Origin: Lytechinus pictus
Lineage: Eukaryota
NCBI RefSeq assembly: GCF_037042905.1
Contig: NC_087245.1
Span: 24,306,001-24,370,000, forward strand
DNA: 64,000 bases
Direction: 5' to 3'
The position numbers and the translations under genes are program-made. The first letter of the stretch is position 1, and every line of letters starts with the position of its first letter. Below the pieces are notes generated by a model that was not told the DNA's origin, ran no database searches, and worked only from the letters and a program-made list of their open reading frames with translations. Shown piece after piece: positions 2,053-49,773 of this stretch.

Positions 2053-2137
2053 GACATTTTGTACACGAAGACACCACAATGTATTTCTTCCTGTTCACTT
2101 GCCTTGATTTCTTCTATGTCTGGTCCGCGTTCTCCAC
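2053..2137 (-). CDS. Exon 8 of Ig-TM-GTPase gene (IFI44-like IHC motif)
   Basis: cag|GTGGAG...ATGTC|gtaagt; reads GERGPDIEEIKASEQEEIHCGVFVYKM. Confidence 0.75.
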
Positions 2138-5100
2138 CTGCCAGTATAATTAATGCAACATTTCATATATAAATCTTGATCGGATTTAATGAACGAAAGC
2201 GTGAAAATATCCTAGCTTGGTAAGAAAAAATAATATTCAGACTTGCATGGTCACTTAGATTAAATGATACAAATATCAGTTAAAACGTGCATATGTTAAA
2301 AGCTAGTACTGCATGAAGTAATGAGGAATTTGCAAAAAATTATGGGGGAATAATAAAAAAACTGGAATCATGCAACACCAACGTAAATGAAGAAATATTT
2401 AGCTGAACTGAACTGAACAATGAAAAATGAGGATTGATCACTAGAATGTGAGATTACTGATGGCATGACATGTATAGGTTTTTTTAAAACCAATTCCCAC
2501 AACATACCAACCAGTTTCTTTGAATTAACCTATAACTCATGCCCTTTAACATCTCGTTCCCACGATTTAATAAGCCCCTTTCACAATTAGTCTGCAACGA
2601 TTGCGACCTTTTAGTCGCATGACAAACTGCAACAGGCATTAATCGCTTTATATACATGTATATGTCATTAGATCCCAGGAGGGATTTCACAAATGCAACA
2701 GCTGTAGTTCAACAAAAGCGATTGGAAACGCCGTTGCACGAGTAAGTCGCAATTGCTCGAATATGCTCGTAATAGCGGCCGTGCGTTCACATGCGAGTGT
2801 TGCAAGAGTGATTGCGAATGATTTTACGACCGATTGCATAGTCAACTCGAGGTAATACGATCGCTCGTACGATTGAATACAAAATGATATGAGTATTCGT
2901 GCGAGTAATGAAAGGTTAAAACGTCCTTTAAAGGCCCTTTCAAAATTGATTCCAGATCAGTTTACGACCGCCTGCAATTGATTTTTTATTGATGTTGCAC
3001 GATCCATCTCTTGGTGTCTTGCGAGCACTCGGGGTCGTTGTAGACGATCGCACGAACTCGAGACGGTCGTGAATGGTCGCATCTGAATTTTGAACATGTT
3101 CAAAATCCAAACGCGATCAAAAATACGATCGATTCACTCGCATCATACCATCTGTCGCGTGATCATCGTGTGAGTGTTGTTCAACGTTGTACGACTTGAT
3201 GCGAGAGGTGGCACAACTAAGCAGTCGCATTTAGTCTACTGGAGGTCGTACACACTTGCACATGTGCTAGCGACCTATAGAGACCAGTTTTGCGACTGGG
3301 TGTAATAATATAAAGGCCATAAGACTGTTGCAACACCGATCGCAACACGGCTTACAACATTGCACTACCGTGGCATTCGCATGTATGCAACCGTTCCTCT
3401 GTGCTACAAAATAGGAGTTAAGAATGATCGAGCTTTAGAACATTTACGGTCTTAATTACATGGATGTTGTCGTTCCTCTTCAAATGTACCCTCACAGGAT
3501 GATGAGGTTGCTGCATCTTCGGCTACAATTACAACGCTTTAGAGAAAGGCATGGTATCAAGTTGCTCGTTACCGATTGGCTGATAGCCCATCGGAAGCCA
3601 CCAGCTATGGTTGCTATATTACATTGCTCTGAAGTTAAATTTGTCTCTACAAAATCACTCCAATCGCACGAACACTCGCACCGGTTTCATTCAAACGTAC
3701 GAGCAATCGCATTGTCTCACGTCGACTCTCACGACTATGCAATCAGTCGTGCGAAACCACTCGCAATCACTCTTGCAACACTCGCATGTGATCGCACGAA
3801 CACTCGCACGAGCAATTACCAGCATTTTCGACTTACTCGTGCAACGGGGTTTACTGGTTGCTTTTGTTGTACGACAGCTGTTGCATTTTTGAAAGCCTCT
3901 GTGCGATCTTTTGAGATAAATAGCGATTGATGCCTCTTGCAGGCTATCGCGCGACCAAAATGTAGCAAGTGGTCGCACGTCAATTGTCAAAGGGGCTTAA
4001 CACAAATTCGATATTGAAAGACACAAACAAGATGAAACTATTAGGTGGGGAGCATGATAACGATTTGATGCTCATATTTAACCCCCTATATAGAACCCCA
4101 AGGAACAGTTGTATACATGCGCATGCATTCAGGCCTCATTCCCACTTCCTTGCGATCAGTTGCGAAAGCCACGATGGCCTTTCGTAATTGATCGCGAAAA
4201 TTTTTAGACCATTCAAAAATTTTCTACGATCAATACGATGGCCACGACTGGTCTGATACGATTTGATATGAACTGATACGTTCACTACGATTACTCCACG
4301 AATGATAGCAGTTTTAATCGTGGAGCGAATCGTGAAAGTGGGAACTAGGTATGTCATGTTGTGATCGGTCGTGAAGCTCAGTCTCTCATGGCCTCTATTT
4401 TATCGCGCCAAGTCGCAAGACTGGTCTCTATGTAGGTCGCTTATGTACGTGTTGCACGACTTCCAGTCCACTAATTGCGACCATTTAGTCGTGCCAACTC
4501 TCGCATCATTTCTTGCAGCTTTGAACACCACTCGCACGACATTCGGACGACTGGTCTCACGATCGCGTTTGGATTTTGGACATGTTCATATTTCAGATGT
4601 GACCAGTCACGGCCACCTCGGGTTCGTGCGATTGCCTGCAAAGACACCAAGCGGTCGATTGGGCAACATCATGAAAAACAAAGTTGCAGGTAGTTACAAA
4701 CTGATCGGGATAATGTGAAAGGGGCTTACTCGTCCCATCGACTGGCATCGACTAATAAGTTGAAGGAGTGTACGAGTTGTGCTTGATTGCCACTCCCAAG
4801 AAACGAGTATTCAGACATTACAATATATGGTTGATCTTACACCTTTTGATAGACACAAATTCCAAGTGACGATGTAACGATTGCAAGGAAAGTATAACTT
4901 ACGAAGCTGAGCAGTTACTTCAGTCAGGTAATCTTTCTTGAAGTCGGCCATGCCTCGGTTGTCGAAAATATGAATGCTCTCAGTGAGCATTAGGACAGTG
5001 CGTGCAATGGTTTTTCCTCCACCAGATTCCTTGTCACCAACCACCTGACTCTCCTTATATTTGCCTGTTTGATGAGAAGGGAAAAATCCCTTAATTTGGC

Positions 5101-8100
5101 AAGGAAATGATATGTTTCAGATCGTTGAAATCAAGTGGGTGAATCGCCAAAAATATATAGCCCATACCATTACACATTCATTTTCCTTTTGTTTCATTGA
5201 AGATCACTAGGTATATTAAATGGCGTATTTTATTCATACAATGATACTTGTGTACATAGATTAAGAAAATATGTACGCATCAATATTCTTATTAAGAAAA
5301 TATTTTTTATGTATGTAGAGTGTTCAACAAGTTACACTTCAGACTGCTATGTCCATTTAGTCAAAAAAAATCATTGAAGCTTCATTCTATCATCCTAAAG
5401 ATATTCAATTTCTTCTTTTACTATTTCGTAGTTCGCGGCTTATTTCTTTTCATAATAGTAGGCCTATGCCATATGATTGTAGAGCCTAACCTGTAAATGC
5501 AAATTCAAGAGAGTTTATGAAGGACGATTTTCCAGCACTCATTTCTCCAAACAGGCCGATGTGTGCAGCCTTCACAACGGATCCATCTCGCTCAAATTTG
5601 AAGTCCTTTAACCGTTCACGTACATCAGCCAATTCTTCTGTAATTCTTTCTGAAATGTGCAAAAGGGTCTTCAATGAATTAGAAATCATAATAGCGGAAA
5701 GATGTTCATCAATAAATATAATATCCCGTTTAGTTCCTGGGGGAGGGGGGGGGGCATTGACGAGTGGATACCATGCGTGATCATGGGGTTTCGAAAAGCA
5801 CCCTAAACAAGTAATTTCCATGCTCTGAAAATGCATCCCTTATGAAATATTGGCGTGTAAAAGCCTACTCTTAACAAGTATTGGAAACAGTACACTTGTC
5901 AAGTATCCCTGAATTGACCCCTAAACAAGTACAACGATATCTTAATTGTCACAGACGTCGGCTTTACCTTTACTTTCATTGGGTTTATTACCACCCCCAC
6001 ACATCTCACTCAAAAATTGGACCCTAAACACGTAGTCTTGTGGTAAAAAGTACATCCTTTATAAAGTATGTTATATACCCTCGCAAATTGGACCGTAAAC
6101 ACGGTAGTTTTAGCGAAATATATACCCCTTTTCATTATTTTAGTGTTTTTGACTCCCTTATTAGGTTACGTTTATAACGTGCCCAATCATGAAAAAGGGA
6201 TACTTTTAACGTGTTTTGGGGGTCACGCATGGTATCCACTCGTCAATGAAAGTCCGCCCCCGGGGGGGGGGGGGTATTCATAACTAGTCAAAATGTCATT
6301 ATTGCATTGACAATGACATTTTATCAATTTAATATTGCATTTAAGCTTTGCAATTTTGTAATGATTTGAATAAGATTAGGCTTATGACATTATACGATGG
6401 AAGATTCGCCCTGTTCAAAACATGTGAAGAAACTTGAAATTTGGACAGCTACCCTGAAACGTAAGTCAGGGGCCGCGGAACCAGGGAGGGGGGCTCCGCC
6501 CCCCCCCCCCCAACTTTTTTTCCAAAACCGTTTTCAAAAACGTAAAAATGACCATATGGTTGTGGTTTTTAGCATGGTCAGCCCCCCCCCCCCCCCCCCC
6601 ACTTTGAAAACCGTTCCGTGGCCCCTGCTAAGGTCCCCTAGCCTAAATATCGTACTTGAAGTATCATTTACTAGGTAATCATTATTATCCAAGATGCGTC
6701 AACACAAAATGAGATTTGAATGCAAATACTCACGTAATCTCACTTCTTCTGGATCTGGTATGGGCAAGTACACTGATCTCAGAAATGGAATGACATTCAA
6801 GACTACTTCACCTGTTTAAAAAGAAAAAAAAGTCGTTATTTTGTGTTTTGTACGGCAGATTCCCGAGTTAGTGTCTACTAAAGAAAGTCATAAGAGCTAT
6901 GGGAATTTTCCTACAGTGTCTTAAGGCTTAGTCCCACTGGCCGACAGATACAAAACGTATTCATAAAGGACACAGCGGACGATCTAAGATTTGCGGGTGG
7001 CTCCATCCGTTTTCATCCGCTCCAGAAATTGACAAAATTGGCGAAAACATAACGGAAAGGACCCGGGAAAGGAACGGACGTTGGTACTATGTAGCGCGGA
7101 TGTTAAACGGTTGTTCATCGGAAACCTTGCGGATGAAAGCGGATGGAAGCGGATGACAGCTTCAAGGGTTTACTTGGGGTTTTAAATACTGAGATGCATA
7201 CGCTTGCATCTTTTCTATTTCCGTGCTACTAACGATGTATAGACGTTCCACGTACCTTATCTTCCTCCCTCTTTCCATTGTTCAGCTCCAGTGGATCTGA
7301 GTTACGATGATGCATTGAGGATATAGCAGACGTTTAACGGATGATAACGTACATGGAATTATATACATGTATAGGCCTACTGTTTACCTTTAGCGTATTA
7401 CAGTCTATTCAAAATTTCCGTTAGTACAGAGAGAGTACAAAGTGATGAAGTTTTTTTATGTTAAAGCTTTCACCAATCATCTCAGATTTTCCAGGGTCTT
7501 TAATTCCCTGTCAGACCACTTTGCAATATTATTTTGAATTATTTTTTGATGAAAACTATGAAATCAAATACCTAGGGGCGGTAGTTTTTTCTTCCTCCTT
7601 AGAACCAGCAAAGTCACAAATAAAGCGACTATTCCAATGGCTATCAATAGCAGTATAACAAAGATAGATATCGCAACCTTGCCTCCAACTGATAGTCCAC
7701 TCCTGACAGGTTCAGCGATCACTGCATCAAAGAATTTAAAAAAAAATGAAAATAATGTGATAACCATTTCAGAAATGTAAAACAGTATTGACACTTCATG
7801 CTTTTCGTCCGAGTATATGTCAACTTTCTTTCCAAATCTAGGGTTTCTCTTTTGGGCGCGATAGAGTAAACTACATACTGGGTATTTTTGTTTTAGATTC
7901 CATTCGATTGGTTTTCTCTCGTCTAGTTTTCCTTACTGTTTTTTTTAACATGGGCCTCATCCCTCGCCAGTAATTAATCAGATTGTCAACAGCATTAAGA
8001 ACTCAATTTCCGTGAGGCAAGGATCCTTGCCTTAACTAGGTTTTAATTTTGGATTCGAACCGAAGAGATCGATGGTAACAGGAACACTTAACCCCTAGTC

Positions 8101-11100
8101 ATGAGTTTTCATTTGGAAAACTAATGTGTTAACACAACATTTATTTTGTCTCTTCTATAACATCATCAAGTAACATATAAAGGTACCATGAAAATCACTG
8201 TTAAAGATCAATCAAGACTTCCTCATGAGATGAACTTTTGTATCCGGTTGTTGTTGTTTTTCCTTATATTCTTAAAAAGCAGTTCTATCCCCAAAATTTT
8301 CAATCTCCGTTTAGCTGTTGGGTGTTTCATATAGCTATTCGTTAAGTTTCTCTGCGATAACTGGTTACACGATCTAAACGATATATCAATGTTGTAACTC
8401 AGCACGTAAAAAGATATTCCAGTCGTGCGTAACTTTGCGAACATCTTCATGGAACTCCCAGCAAACAATTTATTGTCCTATACCTGTCGACATAGGTGGA
8501 ACCAGGACAGTAACGGTCGTTGACCGGTCAGCGCCATTGGTGGCATTGCCCCTAACAGTACAGGTGTAATTCTGTTCTTCGTCTTCTTTAGCAGCCACAC
8601 TGATGGTCACCTCCCTTTCAGATCTACCATCGGGCAATGTCCTTCGGGATGGATTTCCAAGGGGCTGCTTCACTTTACCCGATGACGTCCATTCAAGCGT
8701 AACATCGGGTCTGAAGCCACTGACAACACATTCCAGGTTAAAGGGATATGTGTTGGCCGCTTCAACGATGCACAGATGTTGGTATGGGTTATTTGTTGAC
8801 TGAGGGACACAAGGTGTTACCTGAAGCATTGATGGAGATGCTGTGTAATGGAAGAGAGACAGGGTTTCGAGAACTACAAGAAATTTCATTCTCAAGATTA
8901 TGTCACATTGACCAAGTACACAGAAAACGGTGAAGAAGAAACGTAACGCAATTATGTAGGAAACGGTGAAGAGGAAACGTAACGCAATTATGTAGGAATA
9001 TAAAAAAAATGCGTGTCTGTATGATCGTACCCTTGGGAAGCCACTTAAAAAAATTGCTTTTCCTCTTCTCGCTCTATGGTCGTAGCCTCTCTAACATCTT
9101 ATATTCTAAAATCTTTTTAAAAAATTCTGGATAGATAAAAATGTCACATCCGTTATTTTATTAGATGTTTATTTCAGAAGTGAAAACCCGGGCGCCCTTT
9201 GTAATCAGCCCCCGCCCCATTCCTCCCGAAAAAAAATCAATCGGCTGACTATGCACAGAGTACACTACTTACCGTAGATGGTGAGTTCGGAACTATTAAC
9301 GTAACCATCTCCAGAATCAAGTTCTAATGTGCAAGTGTATTCTCCTTCGTCTGACACCGTTAAATTCAGGATATCGACTGAATAGTCACCATTCAAACGA
9401 AACCGTTCATCGAAGCTCACAAGTTCACCTTTGAAATACGATACTTTTGTTTCACCATTGCTGTTCGTCCAGTACAATGCGAGGACATCAGTGTAGGGGA
9501 ATTCACATGGGAGACGCACCGTCTCACCAAACCATCCTATTGCATGTTTTTCAGTATATACCCTGGCCAAACAACCTAAGAAAAGAAGTGAGAGGAGAAA
9601 GGTGATACTGAATTCTAAATGAAGAGTCAATGATCAAAATGAAATGATTCATTGGCAGTGCTTTGTTTGTAAGTTGGGTCTATTTTGAAAGTATCTTGTT
9701 AGAGATGTCTAGATATCGACTTGAGTCAATGTAAGAGTAATATTGGATTGAAAACACTTCCAGGAGCCGAATTGCTTCTATCGTGGCCGAACATTTTAGC
9801 TCTGTCTGAAAGAACTTATTGGGTCTATTTTGAAAGTATCTTGTTAGACATACTCTTCATTTGAAACTTCTTATGCCAATATCACTAGATCATGAGCCAG
9901 TTCTGAAACTTGCTGATGACTTTGGTCGGGAGTTTTATGTTGGGCTACAGTAAATGCCTGGAGTTTGATGATTGCCCGACGTCTTCTACTTTATCTCCCT
10001 TTTACTTTTAGGCTGTATCAGGTGATATGTTGAAGGTAATCCAAGATAGTTCTTACTAATCAACTGGACCCTTTACGAATATCGTTTCTGTCATTTTAAA
10101 TTGAACTAACCAACAATTTCTTGTCTTGATGGGAAAGTATCTCGGATCAGTTTAAGGGGGAAACCGGAAGGCTATACATGTATACAGTGCGTCCCACAAA
10201 AAACGAAACCGAGATTTATCTATAATTTATCATAACTTAATCACAAACACATAGACAAATGACCTACCATTGTAAAGCTTAGAATCTCCTCTTTCATCTG
10301 ATATTACTTAGATTATTCAGGCATGAGTGAGCAAAAACAATTTGAAGAGGGGATACCAAAAGTCATTTGGCGGGCTGTATCTGGGTTTCAAAAATCAAAC
10401 CACATTTTCAAAAATTTAGATATCTGCTCTTTAATTTGATACCTCAATTACAAAAAAACGGTCCAGAAATAACAAAGTTCTGGTTATTGGAAATAAGGCT
10501 TGAATTTCAATAATTTCATAAAATGGAGAGGTTTTACAGGCTAGCGTTCAAACTCACTCGACAGTCCGTTTTGTTGACGATCAGCCATGCATTAAGTCTT
10601 TTGTTAAGCATGCGATAGCTTCTGTGGGATACCGGTGAAAACACGTTTATTTAATAAAATTATTGAAATACAAGCATTGTTTCGAGGGAACATGACTTTT
10701 TTAATTCTTGACCATTTTTTGTGATTAAGGTATCAAATAAAAGAGCAGATATTGAACTTTTTAGGCAAGTGATTTTCTTTTTGAAATTCAGATAACCCCC
10801 GCCAAATGAGTTTTTGGTATCCTTTCTTCAAATTGTTTTGGCTCACTCATGCGTGAATGAGGAATAATCTAAGTAATATCAGATGAAAGAATAGATTCTA
10901 AGCTTTACATTGGTAGGTCATTTGTCTATTGTATCTGTGATTAAGTTATGATAAATCATCGCTTAATCTCAGTTTCGTTTTATTCTGGGACGCACTGTAT
11001 AGTGACTACTTTTGCAAATCCTGGATACGCACTTCCTCTTTAAGCAAAAGTAAATCATAGACCATTTATTGTAACCTATATTTTCTCTTTCTTCTCAGTA

Positions 11101-12161
11101 GATTATCCATTTCAGAAATTCCATTTTATTCTTGGTATAGTTGGTATACAGGCTAATATTACGAATTCATATCTTGTTCATAATTTTGCAATTTGTATAT
11201 AGACATAAGATGATATTGTGTATTCCGTTTCGAAACCCCACCCATTCCCAGCAGTTTTGTTCAATTCTTTTTTTGTAAAGTGGCAAGTCTAAGGTAATGT
11301 TCCTTCAGATGTCAAAAAAATCATCTGACTTAATGTAAAAAAAATTATATGATATTGTAGCCAAAGAGTCAAAGAATCCATTTCCAATAAAGCAATATGT
11401 TAAATAATGGAAATTAGCGCAAAATGGGTGCCCTAATTGGCATAATTTAAAAACAGCAACTTGCGTATTGGACAATTAAAAAAAAAACATTATTTTAATC
11501 AGTTGGATTTATTTTTCACCTAGTTCCTTTGTGGACATGACCCTGTAAGATTTGCAATGATTATTTTTTTAACTAATTCGTAAAAGAGGGAACTTTGATT
11601 TGGTTCCATGACTTTATGAATGTCTGTACCGAAGCATCGATTATTTTATTTTGAAAAGATACAAGATGAAACTCCATTCTCCAATATTTTGGGTATAGCA
11701 CTTTCCCTTTTATAGGCACGCTCACCCACAATACACTAGCTTACCCAATCGCATCCCAATAAACACACTCTCTCTCTTTCACTCTCTCTTACCCTGTTTT
11801 TTTTTTCGTTATTTTCATCTCTCATATAAATGTCATTTATTCACTTTTCTTCCTTGTCTTTCTTACACCGTACAGTCGTACACTCTTCATTTTATGATAA
11901 TTGACTCACTCTCTCACACACTCTCTTTCCCCCTCCGTTTCTCAATCATGACTATGTATCCAAGATTTAAAAAAAAACAAGGGAGGATGTCGAAAAGAAC
12001 AATCACACGATAAATAAAATAGTAACATAGTTTAAACTGTAGCTTAATTGGTATAGGCCAATATCACAATAAGATAAATCTATAAATTACTTACTCATTC
12101 CTAGCTCATGGTAAGCAATCAGGAATGTGATCAGATAGTCAAGACACAATTTTGCTCTCAT
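2053..12161 (-). CDS. Multi-exon gene: signal peptide-IgV-IgC(2)-TM-cytoplasmic IFI44-like P-loop GTPase (3' end lies beyond window start)
   Basis: Exons 12161-12095, 9575-9273, 8840-8484, 7721-7572, 6811-6734, 5649-5491, 5064-4903, 2137-2053, all AG/GT bounded with matching phases and giving one open frame of about 453 aa. Confidence 0.8.
2574..3996. mobile_element. Non-autonomous DNA transposon with long inverted arms (PIF/Harbinger-like MITE); related copy at about 4131-4728
   Basis: TIR GCCCCTTTCACAATT / AATTGTCAAAGGGGC flanked by TAA/TTA; about 2690-2880 is an inverted copy of about 3690-3895. Confidence 0.65.
4903..5064 (-). CDS. Exon 7 of Ig-TM-GTPase gene (G2 Thr and G3 DxxG)
   Basis: cag|GCAAAT...CAGCTTC|gtaagt, 162 nt; GKYKESQVVGDKESGGGKTIARTVLMLTESIHIFDNRGMADFKKDYLTEVTAQL. 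Confidence 0.8.
5491..5649 (-). CDS. Exon 6 of Ig-TM-GTPase gene (Walker A / G1 P-loop)
   Basis: cag|AAAGAA...TTTACAG|gttagg, 159 nt; HIGLFGEMSAGKSSFINSLEFAFTG. Confidence 0.85.
5737..6277. mobile_element. MITE with G-rich ends and TIR containing TTGACGAGTGGATACCATGCGTGA; related copy at 35068-35360
   Basis: Inverted match between 5757-5781 and 6222-6248; similar termini at 35068-35110 and 35310-35360. Confidence 0.6.
6734..6811 (-). CDS. Exon 5 (juxtamembrane linker) of Ig-TM-GTPase gene
   Basis: cag|GTGAAG...GATTAC|gtgagt, 78 nt, phase 1-1; EVVLNVIPFLRSVYLPIPDPEEVRL. Confidence 0.7.
7572..7721 (-). CDS. Exon 4: transmembrane helix plus basic stop-transfer
   Basis: VAISIFVILLLIAIGIVALFVTLLVL-RRKKK; cag|...|gtattt, 150 nt. 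Confidence 0.85.
8484..8840 (-). CDS. Exon 3: Ig C2/CD80-like domain
   Basis: LECVVSGFRPDVTLEW...NYTCTV; 357 nt, phase 1-1. Confidence 0.9.
9273..9575 (-). CDS. Exon 2: Ig V-set domain
   Basis: GETVRLPC...LYW...ILNLTVSDEGEYTC; tag|GTTG...TACG|gtaagt, 303 nt. Confidence 0.9.
10185..10997. mobile_element. Tc1/mariner-type palindromic MITE
   Basis: TA|CAGTGCGTCCCA...TGGGACGCACTG|TA with arms several hundred bp long. Confidence 0.8.
12095..12161 (-). CDS. Exon 1a: signal peptide MRAKLCLDYLITFLIAYHELGM
   Basis: ATG plus 67 nt ending A|gtaagt, phase 1, in frame with the IgV exon. Confidence 0.7.
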
Positions 12162-15834: not shown

Positions 15835-15907
15835 CTCTTGAAAAGGCACATACTAACAGTAATGAGCTGAAATAGTTTAACCAAGATGCTTTGCTAATTT
15901 CTGCCAT
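15835..15907 (-). CDS. Exon 1b: alternative signal peptide MAEISKASWLNYFSSLLLVCAFSR
   Basis: ATG plus 73 nt ending G|gtaagt, phase 1, compatible with the IgV exon acceptor at 9575. Confidence 0.55.
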
Positions 15908-19222: not shown

Positions 19223-19629
19223 AATACCTCTTAACGCGCGAAGCGAGTTAATGAGAGGTTATCTCAGGTCAGACTAGCTGGACAACAACATAGCCCGCCA
19301 GCGGTACGTAACAGGTGTTTTACAAGGAAGGAGCCTGGTCAGGCGAATTCCTTTGCCCTGGCGGAGATATGTTGCGATGCCAAATATGGTATTTTGTCGG
19401 ACTTCACGAGGAGGCGTGGCCAAAAAATGTTGCGTTGCGAATTTTGGTATTTTTCGGACATTACAAGGAGGCGTGGCTAAAAATGCTACGTCGCGTTAGC
19501 TGACGTGGTAATTTCGGGAGGGGGCAAAAGCCAATTTCTAACAAGTTAGCATTCTTCTTCGTGGAGTCGATTTGAAAGCATCTTCCATCTCAATTCACCT
19601 GTCTTGTGCAACATACTTCCTGTATTTTT
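19223..19629 (+). repeat. Split direct repeat A1 (407 bp), copy of A2 at 25007-25413
   Basis: Same sequence at offset 5784; identical 62-aa ORFs at 19315 and 25099. Confidence 0.95.
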
Positions 19630-19847
19630 GTTATTCGTTCGTTGAACTCTTTAGTTGTGATCCTTCTAATTGTCTTTCTTACCCATTCATATATCTTAAA
19701 GAACGCTTCGCAGTTGAGAATTTATTCTTTTATCTAGGAACATACCTGTATATTTGTGTTATATCCGTTTGTTGGACTTTTGAGCTGTTAGGAGTCACAG
19801 TTTGCTCTAAGGACTTTTCAATTTCGCCACCCCTGCATTATTCAATC

Positions 19848-20957
19848 ATGCCCAAGGTTAAGCCAGGCAAAAAGTTAAGTCAGAGGAAGTCTACTCGTCG
19901 TTCGGTCCGAGATGCCGCCAGCCAGCCTTCTCCTGTCGACCTCGAGACAGACGTCGGCCAAGTTTTTACTTCTACGCAGAGTCCAGCTGCTGGAAGTTCG
20001 GCGTCGACAACCAACGGTGAGTTCGGGACAATGGGGGGCTCCTGGCCTCTTGTGACTTCTCCACAAGATCCGGTCATTCCCCAAATTCAATCCCAAGCTT
20101 CTCCTTCTATCCCTCCTGCCCATGTAGTTGAGGGGCTTAATAGTCATGATAATTTTACACCAGCCCCCAACCCTCCTTTTCCTACGCTGTCTGCGCAGCC
20201 AGATATGCTTAGCTGTGTGTGTGATGATTTGGGCGGGGAGGTGCCTTCCAGTGTTAAGGAGAAGATTTGGAAAGGTGAATTTGTAGAGTTAGGTGGATTA
20301 CTAAAAAGGGAAAGCTTAAGTGAGGAAAGTTCCCAGTTGCAGGCCTTCAGCCTTTGTGCCACCGGGTCCGCTTTAATGCTTCGCCCCCAAAGCAAGGCTC
20401 CGGTGATCGCCAGCATAGAACAGTGGACATCTGCGTTCATTATTTACGCGTCTATATACTTGGAGCGACACTGTATGCGTGCGCGCGAGCTCCTCAAGTA
20501 TATGGATATCGTTCGCTCTATTGTGCGTTTTGGGGGTTTCAATTGGCGGGCCTATGACATTCAATTTCGGTTACGTCAGGCCCGTCATCCACATCGTTCC
20601 TGGGCTGTCATAGACACCGAGCTATGGCTGACAGTAGCTTCGACGCCCGGTCGAGCAGCGTTTTCGTCTTTTGGGGGTAACCAGCCCTTTCGGCCATACG
20701 ACCGGTCGTTTCGGCGGGGTAGTTTCCCATCCTCAGGATATGCCAACAGACAAGGGGCAATTCGGGCCCCTGGCGCCGCGCCTGCCCCCTTCCGCTCCTC
20801 ACCAGTCTGTTTCGCCTTTAACGCTGGGTCATGCCAACGCACCGCCTGTCGTTATGCTCACCGGTGCGGAAAATGCTCCTCAGCAGCGCATGGCTCACAC
20901 ACCTGCAACTCTGCCGCTGCAATCGCCAAACAGAAGCCTAGCTCCAACTCCAATTAA
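19848..20957 (+). CDS. gag: Gag-like protein of Ngaro element
   Basis: First ATG at 19848 in ORF 19572-20957; KEKIWKGEFVEL, W..AF.IY, WRAYDIQFR and C-terminal Cys/His knuckle CFAFNAGSCQRTACRYAHRCGKC...HGSHTC. Confidence 0.85.
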   Translation: MPKVKPGKKLSQRKSTRRSVRDAASQPSPVDLETDVGQVFTSTQSPAAGSSASTTNGEFGTMGGSWPLVTSPQDPVIPQIQSQASPSIPPAHVVEGLNSHDNFTPAPNPPFPTLSAQPDMLSCVCDDLGGEVPSSVKEKIWKGEFVELGGLLKRESLSEESSQLQAFSLCATGSALMLRPQSKAPVIASIEQWTSAFIIYASIYLERHCMRARELLKYMDIVRSIVRFGGFNWRAYDIQFRLRQARHPHRSWAVIDTELWLTVASTPGRAAFSSFGGNQPFRPYDRSFRRGSFPSSGYANRQGAIRAPGAAPAPFRSSPVCFAFNAGSCQRTACRYAHRCGKCSSAAHGSHTCNSAAAIAKQKPSSNSN

Positions 20958-22521
20958 ACTTGGCAGCATGCTCCCATTTCTTAGACGGCACCATAATCAA
21001 CATAATGCAGCTTTTCTGATTTCTGGTTTTAGGTTGGGTTTTTCATTGGGTTTCACAGGCGAGCGTCGCTCTGTGTTCTCGCGTAATTTGAAATCTGCTA
21101 GGGAGCATAGGGACATGCTGTTGGAGAAAGTTGGTAAGGAAGTTAGTTTAGGGAGAATGTCAGGTCCTTTCCAAGACCCGCCTTTCGATAACTTTCGCTG
21201 CTCCCCGGTAGGGCTCGTCCCCAAGCGAAATCCGGGAGAATTCCGTCTAATTCAGCATCTATCTTCTCCTCGGGGGGCTTCGGTTAATGACCACATTGAT
21301 TCCGATTTATGTTCCGTGAATTACACTTCATTTGACAAGGCGGTTGATCTCGTTGCTCGCTTGGGAGCTAGTGCTCTCATGGGAAAAACCGATATAAAAT
21401 CCGCTTTTCGCTTACTACCAGTGAATCCCTCCGATTTTGACCTTCTGGGGTTTTGCATTGATGGCGCGTATTACTTTGATAAATGCTTGCCAATGGGCTG
21501 CTCAATTTCATGTGCCCATTTTGAGCGTTTTAGCACTTTTCTTGAGTCATGTTGCCGTGAAATTGCGAATTCAGAGCAAATTTTGCATTATTTGGATGAT
21601 TTCTTTTTTGTTGGCGCAACACGGCAGGAATGTCGTTCCTTGATGTATCATTTTAAGGCGATGTGCGAGGTTTTTGGCGTCCCGATAGCGGAGGAGAAGA
21701 CTGAGGGGCCCGTTCCCACTATCATATTTTTAGGGCTTGAAATCGACGCGGCTGAGCAGAGAGTTCGGGTACCCAAGGAGAAAGTAAACGTGTTACAGGC
21801 AATGCTCATTGATTTTGTTAAGAAAGATAAGCTCTCGTTGCGGCAGTTGCAGTCGCTAATTGGCAGCCTTAATTTCGTGTGTAAAGCCGTGGCTCCCGGA
21901 AGAGCCTTCCTAAGGAGACTTATCGATCTTACTAAAGGGGTCCGCACCTCAAACCACCGGATAAGGCTTTCACGCGGCGCAAAAGAGGACATGCAGGCCT
22001 GGCTTACGTTTCTGTCCGATTTCAATGGCACAGTTATGTTTTCACACTCAACATGGGTAACTAATGCTCATTTTCAATTCTTTACTGACGCTGCGGGTAG
22101 CATTGGCTTTGGTATATCCTTCCAGGATAAGTGGGCTCAAGGGAAATGGCCAGCTGAAATACTGGAGAAGAATTATTCCATCGCTTTTCTAGAGCTTTTC
22201 CCAATAGTAGTCGGTATACGTATGTGGGGGGCTCTTCTAGCTAATTCTAAGGTCTTATTTTGGTCAGATAATCAAACAGTTGTTCATGTTGTTAATTCCT
22301 TAACTTCGAAATGTCCTAGTGTAATGAAACTGGTTCGTTTGCTTGTAGTTCTTTGTTTGGAACATAATATTATGTTCAAAGCACGTTACGTGCCAGGCTC
22401 TCGCAATGAAAAGGCTGATGCCCTCTCTCGTTTTCAGATGGACAGGTTTCGCAGGTTAGCACCAGGCGCAGATCTGGCTGGCAGCAAGCTTCCCGCCCAT
22501 CTTTGGAGCAGCTTCATATAG
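20671..22521 (+). CDS. pol: Reverse transcriptase-RNase H of Ngaro element
   Basis: KTDIKSAFR, LPMG, YLDD, FLG motifs; RNase H FTDAA..LELF..WSDN..ADALSR; overlaps gag; first ATG at 20968. Confidence 0.95.
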   Translation: MGVTSPFGHTTGRFGGVVSHPQDMPTDKGQFGPLAPRLPPSAPHQSVSPLTLGHANAPPVVMLTGAENAPQQRMAHTPATLPLQSPNRSLAPTPIKLGSMLPFLRRHHNQHNAAFLISGFRLGFSLGFTGERRSVFSRNLKSAREHRDMLLEKVGKEVSLGRMSGPFQDPPFDNFRCSPVGLVPKRNPGEFRLIQHLSSPRGASVNDHIDSDLCSVNYTSFDKAVDLVARLGASALMGKTDIKSAFRLLPVNPSDFDLLGFCIDGAYYFDKCLPMGCSISCAHFERFSTFLESCCREIANSEQILHYLDDFFFVGATRQECRSLMYHFKAMCEVFGVPIAEEKTEGPVPTIIFLGLEIDAAEQRVRVPKEKVNVLQAMLIDFVKKDKLSLRQLQSLIGSLNFVCKAVAPGRAFLRRLIDLTKGVRTSNHRIRLSRGAKEDMQAWLTFLSDFNGTVMFSHSTWVTNAHFQFFTDAAGSIGFGISFQDKWAQGKWPAEILEKNYSIAFLELFPIVVGIRMWGALLANSKVLFWSDNQTVVHVVNSLTSKCPSVMKLVRLLVVLCLEHNIMFKARYVPGSRNEKADALSRFQMDRFRRLAPGADLAGSKLPAHLWSSFI

Positions 22522-23429
22522 AGAGAGAGCATCTGTTGTTTTCTTCGCGGGCGCCCGGCACTCATCATACTTATAGGAACGCTTGGTCTGTGTTTAAGCA
22601 GTTTCGGCTGCAATATCATTATGATATAAGTATACGTCCTGACGTTGAGCAGGTCGCTCAATTTATTGCTTATCTCTCCTGGAATGGGTATGCGGGGGCA
22701 ACAATAAGTACATATATATCAGGCCTGGCTTTTACGATGCAAACATTGGGTTGGCCTGATGTGACTGACGCGTTTGTAATCCGGCGGCTGGTAGACGGGT
22801 GCAGGCGGAAAAATGCTCGCCGTGATACCCGGTGTCCCATAACCCTGCCTATTCTCAAATCCATCCTAAATTCATTGACTCACGTATGCGTTAATACGTA
22901 TGATCTGGCATTGTTTCGGGCTGCCTTTCTAATCGCTTTCTTTGGTTTTCTTCGAGTAGGGGAGTTCACGTCTCGATCTAGACATGAACCCGTTCCTTTA
23001 TCAGAAAAAGATGTTATTATTCAAGGGATGGGTAATCAAGCAAAATTGCGCATTGTGATTGCGAGGTCTAAAACAGATCAAACTGGACGTGGATGCTCGA
23101 TTTTAATTCCACAGAATGTTGTTTCGTATTTATGCCCACTTCGCGCTGTAAATGATTACCTCGCTCTGCGGAGCTCGGTCGGCTCTGCCTTTTTCCGTCA
23201 CTTTGACTCGTCACCCCTAACGAGGCACCAATTTGGCCAAGTTTTAAAGCGTGCCATTAGTTTTTGCGGGCTACCCGTTGCTCATTTCTCTTCCCATTCT
23301 TTCCGTATTGGGGCGGCAACTTCTGCAGCCATGGCAGGTGTTCCCGATGTTTGCATTCAAAATATGGGGCGCTGGGCTTCCAACACACACAGATTGTATA
23401 TTCGACAACCTCTCCCCCCCTTAATTTAA
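22503..23429 (+). CDS. Tyrosine recombinase (phage-integrase family) of Ngaro element
   Basis: Catalytic set GFLRVGE (R), SKTDQ (K), HSFRIG (HxxR), GRW (W), LYIR (Y). Confidence 0.95.
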   Translation: MEQLHIEREHLLFSSRAPGTHHTYRNAWSVFKQFRLQYHYDISIRPDVEQVAQFIAYLSWNGYAGATISTYISGLAFTMQTLGWPDVTDAFVIRRLVDGCRRKNARRDTRCPITLPILKSILNSLTHVCVNTYDLALFRAAFLIAFFGFLRVGEFTSRSRHEPVPLSEKDVIIQGMGNQAKLRIVIARSKTDQTGRGCSILIPQNVVSYLCPLRAVNDYLALRSSVGSAFFRHFDSSPLTRHQFGQVLKRAISFCGLPVAHFSSHSFRIGAATSAAMAGVPDVCIQNMGRWASNTHRLYIRQPLPPLI

Positions 23430-27202: not shown

Positions 27203-29062
27203 TTAGTAACTCGCATACGAATAATTTGACAGTTCATGGCAACTCGATGTCTTTCGACGAGGGGGTTTCAGATTTCCACCCATTTCATCACTGGTAGCAT
27301 ACACGTACACTCCAATATCATCTTCCACTACCATGCTCGGAACGAGGTAACCACTTTTGTCCACCTGGTCCTCTTGCCATGATCTTGCGGATATCGTTTT
27401 CTTGCTTTCTACCAGAACTTCTGTTGGTGGATAGTGTGCTCTGGGGTTCCTTGAATTTTTGGCACGGAGGACAATTGGGCTCTCATCACCAACGCCTTGC
27501 GCCCCGTCAGGTAATAGATAGTCATCGTCATCCGATATGCAAATGGGAAGTTTCATCCCGATCGAGTCTGTGGATTGACTTTCGTTTAAGTTGGAACGGG
27601 TCTTTCCTTGCGCAGGATGGTTGACCCGTGGAACGAGAGCCGGGGATTTTCTTACTTGAATATCCGGACCACTTGCTCCCTTTTCTGCAGGGCTGGGATG
27701 CTTGGCTCTCTTTGTGATGTTACGGCTCAGAATGTCTTTCATTGACACATACACTGGCATTTTCCGATTTTCGTTTTTGTTGGCTCCTTCTTTTTGAGTC
27801 ACAGATACATTATTACGCTTTCTCGTCTTGCAAATGAAAATAAGAAAGCAGAAAGTAATAACAAATAAAACTGATACCGAAACAATTAAAGGTAAAACTA
27901 TAGTCATACCAAATGTTTTATCAAGAATATTGGTAGATCTTTTGTGAGAATGGTCAGAAAAATGAGACATGATTGTTAATAGTGCTTCCGATATCAAGAT
28001 GTTCTCATTTTGGTCCTCACTTATCAGTTGACAGCTGACAATCAGTGGTTCGTCTGTAAGTACCTGAATGTCTTTTATCATCAGCATGCTTGCTTTGTTG
28101 GACTGCGTTATCTCCATTTTACTGATAAGGTCTCCTGGATCATACAATCTTGAAGACACGTTCCAATGAAACGTTCCGTTGGGTGCTTCCAAACTTGCGA
28201 TGCAGACAAACATGGCATTCATTCCCTGCTGAATAACACTGTACAATGGATCAATCCGGACACCTTGGCGACGAACTTGAGCCAATAACCCCGATCGTTT
28301 ATTTTGCATATAAGAGCAGGTCTCTTCAAAACGACCCTCGCCTATCATCCCGTTCAAGGCGCATGTGAAATTAAAGCATTCTTCGATATTGTTGAGCATC
28401 ACCCTTGCCGTCACTATCTCACCAACAAAGTACTTGCTCAGGAGTTCCTTACCATTGCAGAACAACGTCGGCCATGCGTCAGGATGATCTTGAGCAGACC
28501 AGCTACACCTAACCTCCATCTCCTCTTCGTTTGCATTAATCAGATTCATCATCGGCGGAATATAAGACGCAGAACATTTTAACGAATGTGAAGGATTCGG
28601 TATTTTGGATCGGTCAAAGTCTGAAGTATCAAGCGAACTCGAAAAATCATTTCCAGGAATGACGATCACCTCTCCTGCCCAAAGTACTTGCTTGTCCAAA
28701 CCTATAGAGCTGTAACACATGTAAATACCGCTCACGTCCTCACTCGCCATGTACACATCAAGGTAATATATGCGATTCAAACCATCAACCGTATCAACGC
28801 TTATTCCAAAGTTATCCCAATTGGTCCCATAGTCGAAGAGTATATCATTCTTGCTAATGAAACGGCGATATCGTATGGATAACCAGTAAACGTCATCGTT
28901 GTTGGCGGTTCCTGCTTGGCATTCCATAGTCGCACTTTCGCCAGCATTAACGGTAACTTGTTGAAATTCTACATCACCGATGTCCAGAGAAAGTGCAGTT
29001 ATGCTGTAACAGCTTCCCAAAAGAAACAAAACACCTGTGAAGACCGAAGTTGCTTTCATCAT
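27203..29062 (-). CDS. Intronless Ig-superfamily type I membrane protein with tyrosine-motif cytoplasmic tail (619 aa)
   Basis: Signal peptide; Ig domains (GESATMEC..VYW..SGIYMC; AMFVC..FHW..IVSC); TM IVLPLIVSVSVLFVITFCFLIFIC-KTRKR; tail YVSM, YLLP, YLVP, YVYA. Confidence 0.88.
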   Translation of the reverse strand: MMKATSVFTGVLFLLGSCYSITALSLDIGDVEFQQVTVNAGESATMECQAGTANNDDVYWLSIRYRRFISKNDILFDYGTNWDNFGISVDTVDGLNRIYYLDVYMASEDVSGIYMCYSSIGLDKQVLWAGEVIVIPGNDFSSSLDTSDFDRSKIPNPSHSLKCSASYIPPMMNLINANEEEMEVRCSWSAQDHPDAWPTLFCNGKELLSKYFVGEIVTARVMLNNIEECFNFTCALNGMIGEGRFEETCSYMQNKRSGLLAQVRRQGVRIDPLYSVIQQGMNAMFVCIASLEAPNGTFHWNVSSRLYDPGDLISKMEITQSNKASMLMIKDIQVLTDEPLIVSCQLISEDQNENILISEALLTIMSHFSDHSHKRSTNILDKTFGMTIVLPLIVSVSVLFVITFCFLIFICKTRKRNNVSVTQKEGANKNENRKMPVYVSMKDILSRNITKRAKHPSPAEKGASGPDIQVRKSPALVPRVNHPAQGKTRSNLNESQSTDSIGMKLPICISDDDDYLLPDGAQGVGDESPIVLRAKNSRNPRAHYPPTEVLVESKKTISARSWQEDQVDKSGYLVPSMVVEDDIGVYVYATSDEMGGNLKPPRRKTSSCHELSNYSYASY

Positions 29063-30284
29063 GTCAATTAAAAGTGGGTGTTTTTTTTAAAACTAAAATC
29101 TTAAAAACTGACTGACGGTTATGCAGAGAAGATTATAAGGAGAGGAATAGTAAGTAGGTCTCACTGATCCAACTAAGTGTCCGTCTTCATGTGATGGCCG
29201 TGACGCCAATGATTAATTGTCAGTGTTATTTCAAACAAAGATAATATAAACAGCAGTCATTTCCTCTTTGACTGGACGCTCTTTATAATTGGAGTTAATG
29301 TTTCAACAGAGATTAGAAAACACTACAATGGAAATGATCAGACGATAGGATATTCGACTTGCGGATATTACACAACTTTTATATCCTGATGAAAAATAAA
29401 CTGATTAAGAGGTCACCACGCTTGCCTTCTACCACCGAGTGATGTAGATAATCGTAGTTTCATTTACCATGGTCAGGTAAAATATTTTACCTCTGCATTC
29501 AATGATCAATGACGTCATGGCGGCAAAAGAGGGTGCCATACAGCATGTACAGTTGATGTGAATGCTAACTCTCCAAGGCTTTCCCTTAATGGACCAGCAC
29601 AAATCAAATAAAACTTCACAAAGTCCATAAAAGGTACCTTCAAGATGTTAGGTTGTTTGATTACCATTTATCGAGTATGTTTAAATCCAGTACACATTAG
29701 GTTACGATAATGGTGATAATACAATTCAATAAAGATAATTGTGATGAAAATAAATATCGGTATCAATTCCCATATTCATTAAAAAAATAGATACAGATAA
29801 ATTACTAAATAACTGACGAAGTGGTAAATCTGGAAAGTTATTCTCTAAGTGTTGTATTGATAAAAGGGGACGTTGCCCTTTTAATTAGATAAAGATCAAG
29901 CTCTCGGAACCCACCCCCCCCCCCCACCCCTGGTGTGAAAAATCATTCACGTTTGAACACCTATTGTATACACTAAAATGTTCTTGATTTTGCCAAATTA
30001 AGTTAAAATTTTTGCTTGAAGCCGTTGCATTTTTATTTTATCCTTACAGCGAGGCTCGGAAAAGACTGGAATTGCGATTTCAGTATTCATATCAATGTTC
30101 GGAACATTCATTCTTCATATCAAATTTCATTACAATTTATTTGAAATCGGATTGCAACGGATCGCTGTAATGTGCATCGGACTTTATTCTAAAACTCCAA
30201 TTTGACAAAAAAAGGTGAAGCGATTGTATATATTTCTTAGTTATGTAGAAAGAGGCATTTGAAGGGTTTGAAGCTAAAATATTG

Positions 30285-31344
30285 TCATTTAGAGGAAACG
30301 CGATTCGCCACAGTGTACAAATATGGGTTGATTGATGAATTGATGGGTAGGACAAAGACTACAAGCCAGGCATAGATATCAGGGGTCACAACAACCACAT
30401 CGGCCTGGACTAGGATTCCAATGACAATGATTGGCATCCAACAGCACAGATCAGTTCCAACAATGAGGAACATCTTGCTGGCCATCTTCACCTGATCTAG
30501 GGACTTTGACTTCCGGCCAGCACTCCTTCCAGCGAAGTACACCTTGATGAAAACTGCTATGTAGCACAAGCAGATCACCACAAAGTTGAGCAGATTAACA
30601 CCAAGGAAGAGGGCAATCGCATACTGCCAAGTGGGAATCGATGTCCCAGAAATAATGGCGAATTCGGTAAAGCCGTACATCGACTTGGTGTAAGTATCTA
30701 CTGCGGCATACAGATCAATCTGCTTGCGGATGAGGGGAAGACCAACGCAAACGTCACTGAGACTGTATGCGTCGGTGTTCAAAAAGCCAAATGCGATTGA
30801 AATGCTACTGACCAGAAGAGCCAGTGCCCAGGTGAAGCCAGAGAAAACACGAGCAGAGACAACCCCCAGTCGCTTTTGACTGAAGGGAAATACAATGCAG
30901 ACTAATCGATCAACTGAAATGAGAGTGATAAGAAACACGGATGCCTCACTGCTTAAGACGGAGATGAATCCTGCAATTTGACAGGTATTGCTCTTTCGCC
31001 ATTCTTCGGATCTACCCTCCCAGAAGTAGGAATCCCCTATGTATATATCCATTACAGCTAAGATGATCATATAGACACCCATCAGAAAATCGGACACAGC
31101 TAAGTTGGTAATCAGTGTTGACTGAACAGAAGATATAGTGGTTTCGTGCTTGGTTCGCAACCTCATGATAATGACAAACGCGTTGCCAACCAAAGCGCTG
31201 AGACCGAGTATCCAGATAAACACCTTGATGGTTGTGTTTTGAAGAAATGTCTTGCGGCAGGTAAAGAGTGGGTGTGGTGGTTCTCTATTTACACATTCAG
31301 CACCAACCGGACGTAGACAGCACAGTCTTGGGTCATACACATGT
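30285..31344 (-). CDS. Terminal exon: hinge plus rhodopsin-type 7TM domain
   Basis: DPRLCC hinge, LVGN, NLAVSDFLMG, SVDR, TDLCCWMP, INPYLY. Confidence 0.95.
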
Positions 31345-34300
31345 CTGTATGAAAAAATACAGTTATATTGATCTATTGTTACAATCCCATTATATCAATA
31401 CGCGTTTGAGACACAACGCAGGCACTAAGTACGAAAACTAAAATAAGAGAAAATAATTGCGATGGAAGAAATTTCCAAATCCAAACATTGAATCGAATTT
31501 CGTCTAATATTCGAAAAACATATAACAGGAATCGAATTTGTTTGACAAAAACTAAAGACAAGGGGTAAAAAAAAATGATCGTGATTAACCAAGAGAAATA
31601 CGTATCACACAAGCATAGGCGGGGGTCCCCCCTAAATTTGAGGTGGGGGACGATCCCTCCCCCTAAATTTTTCGTTGATGACCTTTTTTTTTTTTTTTTT
31701 TTTTTTTTTTGCTTGTCAAAAATTGTTTTCGGTTCCCCCAAAAATGTTGGTTGATATGTAACTTTTTTTAGTTTTGCTTGTTAACATTTTTTGGTGGTCC
31801 CCCCTAAATTGTTTGGCTTCCGCCGCCAATGCACACAAGTAATACTTACAAAACCTTTAGATTCACAAGGCCTTCGAAAAGCTCGGGATAGAGAAGCATT
31901 GGTTTTGAGGATCTGGTCATTATACGCCTTTAAAGATAATAATAATAATAATATTGTTATTGAGACTACTGGTTACCCGTCTGAATCAACAAAATTTAGA
32001 TGACATCCATACACAGGATGAGAGGTAAAACCAACATTTAATAGAAGTCATAGAAACATTTTCCATCTGATTTTATTCAAATCCTTGAGTGGAATAATAA
32101 TACTACTGTCATTGGTGATTCTGCAAGAAGAGAATGCATTCCATTTTTGCAAACGAGAGAGACTTATTATCTTGGCTTTTAAGATTTATTTCTTTTACGG
32201 AATATTCGTCTTTTAAATTTGATGTTAGTCGTTGACAACGGAAATTATGTTGTTAAAAATTACCCCCCTCGTCCGAGAAAGGAAACATTTTTTTTTATTA
32301 CTTCTTCAATATTGGCACGTTTTTATTTGAAATACTCATTACGTAGGCGAAAATTTACTCTGATGCCCCAAGAGGGTTTTGAGTGTTAATAAACTTTCAA
32401 CTTTCACACTTTCAAACATCAACATAAACCAAAAAAATGCTCTATAATAATACGATATAATATTGGCAAGATCATACATGCCTCAATGTTTTTACTTTGA
32501 CATTTATTTTATTCATGTACTTACAAATCTGTAAGTTGAGGTTGGTCGCGAAAGGTCCCCGGTTCAATGAAGTAGATAGGGTTGCGGACCAATACCCTTG
32601 GGAGAAAAGCAAATATATAGAGAAATTCTTCAAGAAATTCATTAAAAAAATGTCGGTGTGTTATTCTCTTAGATTATGTAGGTTTGGAATTGAACGTTAC
32701 CAAATCCATCCATCTGTTTGTTTTTGAAAATCTTGAACCCATCTCCTACGGTTTAACGTTGTACAGATGATTATACTGCCTCTTGAAAATCAGAACCTAT
32801 CTCATGCAGGGGTGTAATTTAACAGCAGACTGTCGTCTTAAATGTTAAAGTCAAGAAGTTATTACAAATCGATTGGCCATCAGTGAGTTTACCGGCTATA
32901 TGGAGTTATAAACTTCTAACCTTCTTTTAATCGTCTTTTGATGAGTGATTGATAGTAAGCATGTTTCAATTGATTCTCAAGCCTTTTTTATGTCACTTTC
33001 TTCGATTTTATCCTGGATGCATTTTAGATGACTAATCGATAAACTCAAGTGATGTATTTATTTGTGGTAAAGACCGTAACATGGACTCACAACATGATAA
33101 ACTGCTCCCCCATTCCTTCCAGTATTGAAGCATTGAAGGATGTCATCAGGTTGTCCTCCAGAATCCTTGTTAACAAAAAATGTCAAGAGAAGACATTTGA
33201 ATCAGTAATAGTTTCTTCACCGTTCCTATTCTAAATACTAATTTTGCCAGAGCAAAAACATTAAAATTTCGCCGTTTCAATTTAATTCGCTTCAATTTGC
33301 GATACTCACATCCTGAAAATAATCAACTTTTTTTCAACCCACATTTCTAAGAATTTATGCCTTACCAATCCCAAAATCATTAGTCGCCCACAAATCAAAT
33401 CAACATATTAATTATGATCCTTTTCTTTGGAATTATTTACCTACATGAGCTGAAACATAAATAATCCGCACTTAATGCCATGTTAGATCATCGTCTAGCA
33501 TATAAATCACTAATTCTATTCTCTGATATTTTTTTTAACATTTCTCCTTTATTCATTATTTCTCCTATTTTCACTGTAGCTTTATTAATGCAGCGGTATC
33601 ATACTGGAACCCTTTCTCCTCAATTAATGAATATGTTTTCTTTCAATTGTAATATACATAATCACTATACAAGGTCTTCAAGACAACTTCACAGATGAAA
33701 TTACAAGAATGACTTATCTAAATTTTCATTGCGTCACACTGGTCCCACAATATGGAATAGTCTGAATCTTGAACAATTTAATATTACCTTTCATGATATT
33801 TTTAAAAAGCAATATAAAAATAAACTGATCCAAAGTTACTAAGATCCTCATCGTACTATAAATTTCCATTAGGTTTGCTTTGTGTCTTGTTGTTGATGTT
33901 TTTTTTTTTTTGTCTTTGCTTTTGTTCTTTTGCTACTTGCCACATCCATATATTACAATTATTTTAAGAATCAATTTACTTTGGGTGTGTGCGTTTTAAC
34001 AAGCCTTCTCCTGGCTTTTTTAGTGCACTCATGTTTCCCATTCATTTATCCTTCGTCTTGTTTTATATTGTTTCAATGATCTGGCAACAATACTTTGATT
34101 ATCACTTTCGCTTGTATTTATTTATGTTTTAATGATATGTTTTAATTTCTATTGTCTTCTTTGTTTGTACATGATCATGATATCAACTTGCATTTTTGAT
34201 GAATTGGAAATAAATGCTGAATTGAATTGAATTGAATATATTGTTGTCTTCCTGTAAATTTACTTGCAATTTACCCCCATTTGTACGAGCTTTTCTGCAA

Positions 34301-49300: not shown

Positions 49301-49773
49301 TTCAATACTAATCTTACCTCCGCATCCTGTTTCGTCTGAGAAATCATGACAATCAATCACGTGATCACATCGAGCCAATGATGATACAGACTGCAGACCG
49401 GATGTACATAGGAAATCATCTGATACTGCGCAATGAGTACCAGAGGAGTTGCCTGTTTGTAGAAAAGAAATAAGGTTGTATTTATGTAATTGCGAAATAA
49501 TAATGATGGCACTATCACCTAGAAAACTTGGGATCAGTTCAGTCGGTAGCCTATAAAGTTCCACGGCTGAACAGGTTCTTGATTTATGACAATCTGATCT
49601 ATTTTTGCCCTCATCCAAAGCTGTGTACGTCCACGCTTGAGAGTAACAACATGAAAAGACATACAATCAACTATAAAATTGATTACATATAGAATGATAG
49701 AATAGTAGTAATGGCGAATATATTTATCCTTTTCAAAGTAGTATATATTGCCCCGCATACATATATTTATACC

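Follow-up and report, generated by a model that had tools for sequence, protein, structure and literature searches.

We analyzed a window of 64,000 nucleotides (nt) of the sea urchin Lytechinus pictus (NC_087245.1); positions given here are window positions unless they carry the prefix G000:C1. Its minus strand holds gene LOC129272677, which, judged from exon structure and predicted protein, encodes an immunoglobulin (Ig) ectodomain, a transmembrane (TM) helix and a P-loop G domain in one gene. Its coding exons are as follows.

15835..15907, minus strand: conserved first coding exon, with the signal peptide, of isoform X1 (P0009); identical to P0009 1-25 and matching the first exons of P0001, P0004, P0005 and P0013.
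12095..12161, minus strand: alternative first exon of isoform X2, with a weaker signal-like segment; placed by splice ends and identity to the RefSeq model.
9273..9575, minus strand: IgV exon; Pfam V-set, E 1.4e-11; a run X1 contig breaks exactly at 9273.
8484..8840, minus strand: IgC-like exon; Pfam Ig_3, E 8e-8, and C1-set over cut-off; two run X9 contigs break exactly at 8484.
7572..7721, minus strand: TM exon with the basic stop-transfer RRKKK; hydropathy 3.3.
6734..6811, minus strand: juxtamembrane linker exon of 26 amino acids (aa); placed by splice ends and identity to the RefSeq model.
5491..5649, minus strand: G domain exon 1, with the N-terminal helix and G1 (GEMSAGKSS).
4903..5064, minus strand: G domain exon 2, with the G2 Thr, a conserved Arg and G3 (DNRG-M).
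2053..2137, minus strand: G domain exon 3, with the IHC strand; the gene runs on past the window start.
G000:C1:24304340-24304272 and 24303217-24302828, outside the window: the two last exons, with the G4 THAA, the ENYT motif and the basic tail.

The eight minus-strand exons from 12161 to 2053 have AG/GT ends throughout, and their joined frame is open for 453 aa and contains the motifs quoted in an earlier note on this DNA, which had proposed these eight phase-consistent exons. The product is identical (453/453) to RefSeq XP_054765861.2 (P0010; L. pictus LOC129272677 isoform X2, 'uncharacterized'), RefSeq entries being predicted models, and introns 1–7 are all phase 1. The exon chain therefore holds, and its two ends had to be revised. 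The earlier note took the exon at 12161 to carry the signal peptide. In L. variegatus and Strongylocentrotus purpuratus, it is the exon at 15907-15835 that is conserved as the signal-peptide exon; exon 12095-12161 is the first exon of isoform X2, whose RefSeq model begins 33 codons upstream of the start previously placed at 12161, and its depth was zero in all four of the sequencing runs (4/4). Nor are the eight exons the whole gene: with the two beyond the window start, the full isoform X1 protein (P0009) has 609 aa. At 2390-4780, the intron separating G domain exons 2 and 3 contains a long insertion derived from repeats, with some segments inverted; parts of it match the intron of a paralog.

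Comparative data argue that these exons form a single transcript, since 5 loci and 5 species share the order and phase of the Ig, TM and G exons and the linker exon is conserved. In sequencing contigs from runs X1 and X9, depth per exon base is similar across the IgV, IgC, TM and G exons (71-138 in X1 and 9-63 in X9, by our own normalization over 7 bins without obvious repeats), and intron-only bins, for example 7867-8280, have a contig depth of 0. The type of these runs ('RNA?') is only guessed, contigs were aligned at 85% likeness, so that those of paralogs may add to the depth, and contig depth is a poor measure of expression; the comparative evidence is the stronger. Contigs ending exactly at 9273 and 8484 carry leftover letters. 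It is very improbable that the receptor is an annotation artefact, in which gene predictors fused an Ig-TM gene to a separate soluble G-domain gene. Repeats swamped the read tables, so that the TM-to-G junctions do not appear in them, and soluble paralogs are common: among 20 other G-domain loci checked, Ig exons lie within 9.5 kb upstream at one (the C8:1.70 Mb gene) and not at 19. An in-frame Met, 13 codons ahead of the 5649 acceptor, would also allow for a soluble isoform. Yet such a fusion does not sit well with the shared exon order and phase, the conserved linker, the similar depth of Ig, TM and G exons, or the clustering of receptor G domains in trees.

The predicted order of the receptor is signal peptide, IgV, IgC, TM, G domain and basic tail. 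It has the signal peptide, Ig domains, single TM and positive-inside flank of a type I receptor of the Ig superfamily, as judged by hydropathy only, and four N-glycosylation sequons are predicted in the ectodomain. The V-set match bears out the IgV label. The second domain, previously called IgC2, is better named IgC-like because exon 3 (8484..8840) passes the Pfam cut-off for C1-set, as for Ig_3 and I-set, with C2-set under it. A full-length AlphaFold model was poor (predicted local distance difference test, pLDDT, 58), and Foldseek matches obtained with it were Ig only. The 54-aa basic tail after the G domain was modelled with low confidence and is absent in paralogs P0013 and P0004.

Fold matches to the ectodomain include CD166, Rst, PD-L1 and BTN. 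The S. purpuratus ortholog is labelled 'butyrophilin subfamily 2 member A2' in RefSeq, and a Pfam scan of the receptor proteins found no B30.2 cytoplasmic domain. Between the tandem paralogs, the ratio of non-synonymous to synonymous substitution rates (dN/dS) is 0.04 in IgV (1 non-synonymous versus 7 synonymous), versus 0.5-0.6 elsewhere (Fisher p 0.005), with 0.61 in the G domain. Gene conversion as the source of the IgV identity is not supported, dS being 0.11 in all domains. The low IgV ratio, the fold matches, the butyrophilin name and a relaxed G domain with a degenerate G4 would all suit an adhesion molecule or co-receptor, butyrophilin-, nectin- or CD166-like, for a conserved self ligand. 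Its G domain would then be a nucleotide-binding sensor or scaffold (a pseudo-GTPase), loosely like the butyrophilin B30.2 sensor, and signals would pass inside-out or non-enzymatically. We consider this possible but doubtful: deep paralogs with ∼30% identity still have G1, G2 and G3, and in the comparison with S. purpuratus no globular domain is less conserved than IgV (61/101 versus 158/234 for G).

Modelled on its own, the G domain gave a confident AlphaFold structure (82 sequences; pLDDT 90.8). Foldseek placed GIMAP2 and septins on top, with Irgb6 among the neighbours and EF-Tu and EngB scoring alike; VIA-align gave Z 12-14 to many G domains, the longest alignment being to Toc33 (Z 13.0 over 202 residues). 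The predicted fold is that of a TRAFAC G domain, and its subclass within TRAFAC is not fixed by fold, because many G domains score alike. In sequence searches, the Pfam GTPase cut-off was reached by 0/5 receptor proteins, none of the five had an AIG1 match at E 0.1, septin stayed under cut-off in 2/5, and a PDB sequence search with the G domain returned nothing better than E 0.036.

The tail had been described as an IFI44-like GTPase. In HHalign, the receptor G domain matched fish IFI44 at 97.7% (E 1.7e-12, 213 columns, 21% identity), compared with 5.7% for GBP, and dynamin-like domains aligned over only 20-22 columns at the P-loop. With the P-loop removed the link to IFI44 persisted (E 0.002; 0/20 column shuffles scored as high), and a language-model lead to IFI44 scored 0.96. 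A plain fish-IFI44 hidden Markov model (HMM) reached the receptor at E 0.003 only, at the P-loop. The alignments thus indicate that the tail is related to IFI44 along its length, beyond the P-loop. Far closer is an unnamed soluble family from amphibians, urchins and amphioxus (P0040, P0042, P0055, P0141; HHalign 99.95%, E 1.9e-38). By sequence, the receptor does not belong to the IFI44 family strictly defined, because it has no TLDc, falls on a separate branch and lacks TKxD. Each of the 120 fish proteins listed has a PF07534 entry, whereas no TLD match was found in P0001-P0005. In a tree of 36 rows, hand-picked for coverage and unrooted, with IFI44 from fish only and on a long branch, IFI44 and five other soluble rows stand apart from the receptors on a 97/92 branch. 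Fish IFI44 was not found in the L. pictus genome with one protein query, which does not show absence.

Receptor G domains, with three nested rows without TM, form one weakly supported group, with a Shimodaira–Hasegawa-like approximate likelihood ratio test (SH-aLRT) value of 92 in a quick tree of 73 rows and 82/72 in the 36-row tree. These values allow a single origin without showing it, and the grouping would fit a single fusion after which some members lost the ectodomain. The 99* 'TM' support in the 73-row tree was disregarded, as it counts grouped rows only.

An HMM built from five G domains matched 341 cluster representatives at E <=0.001. Among the best 150 of these 341 (100 of them scanned only at E 1e-6), 13 have an Ig domain and 12 have Ig plus an upstream TM. 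All 12 are echinoid, from L. pictus, L. variegatus, S. purpuratus, Diadema antillarum and D. setosum; further Ig-TM-G paralogs and orthologs were found besides, and the ectodomains carry one, two or three Ig domains. Ig, TM and G exons follow one another in that order at no fewer than five loci of the L. pictus genome: LOC129272677, its tandem paralog ∼50 kb off, C1:28.9 Mb, C8:1.70 Mb and C8:14.98 Mb. Locus counts are lower bounds, and mirror-image C8 clusters may be assembly duplicates. Outside the receptors, the domain occurs either in soluble form or joined to GBP (Bombina), TIR (Branchiostoma), VWA or TLDc (10 named). It follows a full GBP in P0055 (Bombina bombina), P0066, P0107, P0128 and P0139, TIR in P0141 (Branchiostoma belcheri) and VWA in P0136; P0150 combines it with a SAP30 zinc finger. 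By its sequence distribution, the domain is an unnamed mobile module of putative immune type, with no Pfam family.

Two related gene sets were seen elsewhere in the genome. At G000:C8 31.0-31.4 Mb (plus strand) and 35.7-36.0 Mb (minus strand), a G-domain subfamily is present in nine copies that have no Ig exons nearby and that fall among the receptor G domains in trees; a relative, P0043, has an N-terminal TM and no Ig. These nine could be soluble partners or decoys, and their mirror layout may be an assembly duplicate. Separately, related IgV/IgC exons, dozens in number, make up a large receptor-like expansion at G000:C8 (2.0-2.3, 13.7-14.0, 18.4-19.0 and 23.6-26.1 Mb), C9 1.35-1.53 Mb, C10 and C11, followed downstream by helical-looking exons of ∼110-170 aa. 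The same ectodomain family may carry other tails there. The big C8 Ig clusters do not read as Ig-NACHT or further Ig-G receptors: no G-domain match lies within 20-30 kb downstream of 7/7 IgV loci, and the listed NACHT matches are not adjacent. A death-domain reading of the downstream exons was likewise set aside, with 1 weak Death match (E 0.007) among 19 open reading frames. Near an Ig locus on C8, L058:2636-5700 (plus strand) holds retroelement fragments that we take to be Gypsy-like.

What the tail might do can be approached through its nucleotide-binding motifs, labelled G1–G5. G1–G3 are intact in the LOC129272677 protein. Across 14 'receptor' alignment rows, which include P0027 (no detected TM) and P0034 (no detected Ig), the G1 Lys is present in 14/14, the G2 Thr, the Arg after G2 and the G3 Asp each in 12/14, and the G3 Arg in 11/14. 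A Met occupies the Q61-equivalent position, that of the Ras-type catalytic Gln.

We tentatively favor a model, drawn by analogy, in which ligand clustering pairs the tethered G domains via the G interface and so switches their nucleotide state. The IgV/IgC ectodomain would bind a ligand on a cell or microbe and cluster receptors, raising the local concentration of tethered G domains. These would pair through the nucleotide-binding face, like GIMAP, septin, Toc and IRG GTPases, for which G-interface dimerization is described (PMC4774019). Pairing could trigger hydrolysis without a Ras-type catalytic Gln, perhaps via a conserved Arg, and the nucleotide state might recruit an effector, for which soluble G-domain paralogs are candidates, with defence or self/non-self recognition as the output. 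The model is consistent with the Met at the Q61 position and the two conserved Arg. An immune role is suggested by association only, from relatives of the domain fused to TLDc (IFI44), GBP, TIR and VWA and from AjNLRC4, a sea cucumber receptor that dimerizes on infection. A bolder version, which we regard as speculative and rather doubtful, is that these are true receptor GTPases, in which an outside ligand directly switches the attached GTPase inside, as in receptor tyrosine kinases; they would have arisen once in echinoids by phase-1 exon shuffling, perhaps in parallel in chordates, and would signal via soluble G-domain paralogs.

Several observations weigh against the clustering model. At G4 the receptor has THAA, not TKxD, and so departs from the guanine-specificity motif [NT]KxD; GTP binding and specificity are therefore not assured. 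An Asp at G4 +3 occurs in 5/14 receptor and 22/68 soluble rows, and TKxD in at least 86/102 fish IFI44. Some Diadema-type copies have a decayed G1 or G3 (P0173, P0027). Arf-like and Rab rows tie with GIMAP, septin and Toc, so the fold matches do not single out a dimerizing clade. The strong purifying selection on IgV is unlike that of a diversifying pathogen sensor, and exon depth was close to none (0-0.05) in the raw RNA of X5 and X6, with roughly a quarter of either run covered. A homodimer prediction for the G domain with GTP/Mg, in which the alignment was not used, scored 0.00 and is evidence neither way.

The fold neighbours GIMAP2, septins and Irgb6, together with amphibian relatives fused to GBPs, also bring to mind a receptor-delivered membrane effector. 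The Ig part would capture a target and be internalized; the G domain, oligomerizing at the membrane of the phagosome or contact site, would then have a structural or remodelling role, IRG-, GIMAP- or septin-like, with no signalling switch. The NTPase tail of AjNLRC4 is reported to couple Ig binding to actin-driven phagocytosis (PMC8699970). We nevertheless think this unlikely, as there is no helical stalk, just the low-confidence basic tail that P0013 and P0004 lack.

Single-pass receptors usually signal via kinase, phosphatase, cyclase, GTPase-activating protein, TIR or death domains. A G domain in that position, in a family both conserved and expanded, would give the urchin immune or recognition repertoire a further signalling chemistry, and would do so in an animal used as a laboratory model; the genes concerned are hidden under 'uncharacterized' or 'butyrophilin' labels. 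The biochemistry of IFI44-type domains is poorly defined (in a 2024 IFI44L review, the word GTP occurs 0 times), and a naturally tethered version makes activation by clustering directly testable. If the clustered receptors were true receptor GTPases, they would offer the first tractable handle on activation of an IFI44-type G domain.

Other genes share the window. At 27203-29086 (minus strand), a long open frame encodes another Ig-type TM protein (∼620 aa), whose tail has several tyrosine motifs. A rhodopsin-family seven-transmembrane (7TM) exon at 30285-31394 (minus strand) and an upstream LDLa exon at 49253-49666 (minus strand) possibly belong to one receptor gene, presumably GRL101/RXFP-like. 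At 19542-23429 (plus strand), ∼3.6 kb upstream of the conserved first exon of the Ig-TM-G receptor, is a tyrosine-recombinase (DIRS/Ngaro-like) retrotransposon with three overlapping frames: gag-like, reverse transcriptase/RNase H and recombinase.

We compared the receptor with known systems. With butyrophilin-, B7- and nectin-like proteins it shares the IgV-IgC-TM front half and phase-1 exons; in place of their B30.2 or tyrosine-motif tails, neither of which was seen in the receptor, it has a G domain. With IFI44 and IFI44L, the tail has in common a collinear N-terminal helix, G1, DxxG, IHC strand, T-x-x-x G4 strand and (E/K)NY(T/S). IFI44/IFI44L of vertebrates and oyster, however, combine TLDc with the G domain, whereas the urchin receptor has a signal peptide, Ig and TM instead; IFI44 is soluble, whereas the receptor has a signal-like N-terminus, a TM and sequons (all predicted); and IFI44 has TKVD at G4 versus THAA, with insertions that the receptor lacks. 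Oyster IFI44L is described as cytoplasmic with TLDc and MMR_HSR1 domains (PMC11682996), and the accessible part of a zebrafish study reports expanded ifi44 genes and does not mention an Ig fusion there (10.1101/693333). The unnamed soluble family shares DNRG, TH and ENYT with the receptor, but is soluble or fused to GBP, TIR or VWA, not to Ig-TM. Chordate I-set+IFI44-like and V-set+AIG1 clusters in the ESM Atlas (75, 72 and 63 members) also combine Ig and an immune-type GTPase in one chain; at scores of 0.88, 0.88 and 0.82 (under 0.9), and compared by label rather than sequence, they are leads only. They may be parallel inventions, which lowers any claim to uniqueness.

No open-literature title or abstract was found with an Ig-TM-G architecture; subscription papers, supplements and the 2006 urchin immune-gene surveys lie outside that scope and may list these genes. 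The conserved, expanded echinoid receptor family with a G-domain tail is thus apparently undescribed. Its general plan is not without precedent, although the earlier note did not recognise the class. AjNLRC4 is described as a sea cucumber protein with two extracellular Ig domains, TM and an intracellular NACHT that dimerizes on infection (PMC8699970). It is likewise an echinoderm membrane receptor with Ig outside and a P-loop NTPase inside, but its NTPase is a NACHT (STAND ATPase class) and it has two TM, versus a TRAFAC G domain and one TM in the urchin receptor. Crassostrea virginica has Cys-rich-TM-DED-TRADD-N receptors with an optional AIG GTPase (PMC8195603, section 10). These too are lineage-expanded and single-pass, with a variable tail that may hold an immune GTPase, but their ectodomain is Cys-rich, not Ig, and the AIG1-family GTPase is optional behind DED-TRADD-N. 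Snail AIG proteins are reported to have a TM but no signal peptide (PMC7053062). By these comparisons, the urchin protein would work like a receptor-NTPase; it is related to IFI44, but is neither IFI44 nor butyrophilin.

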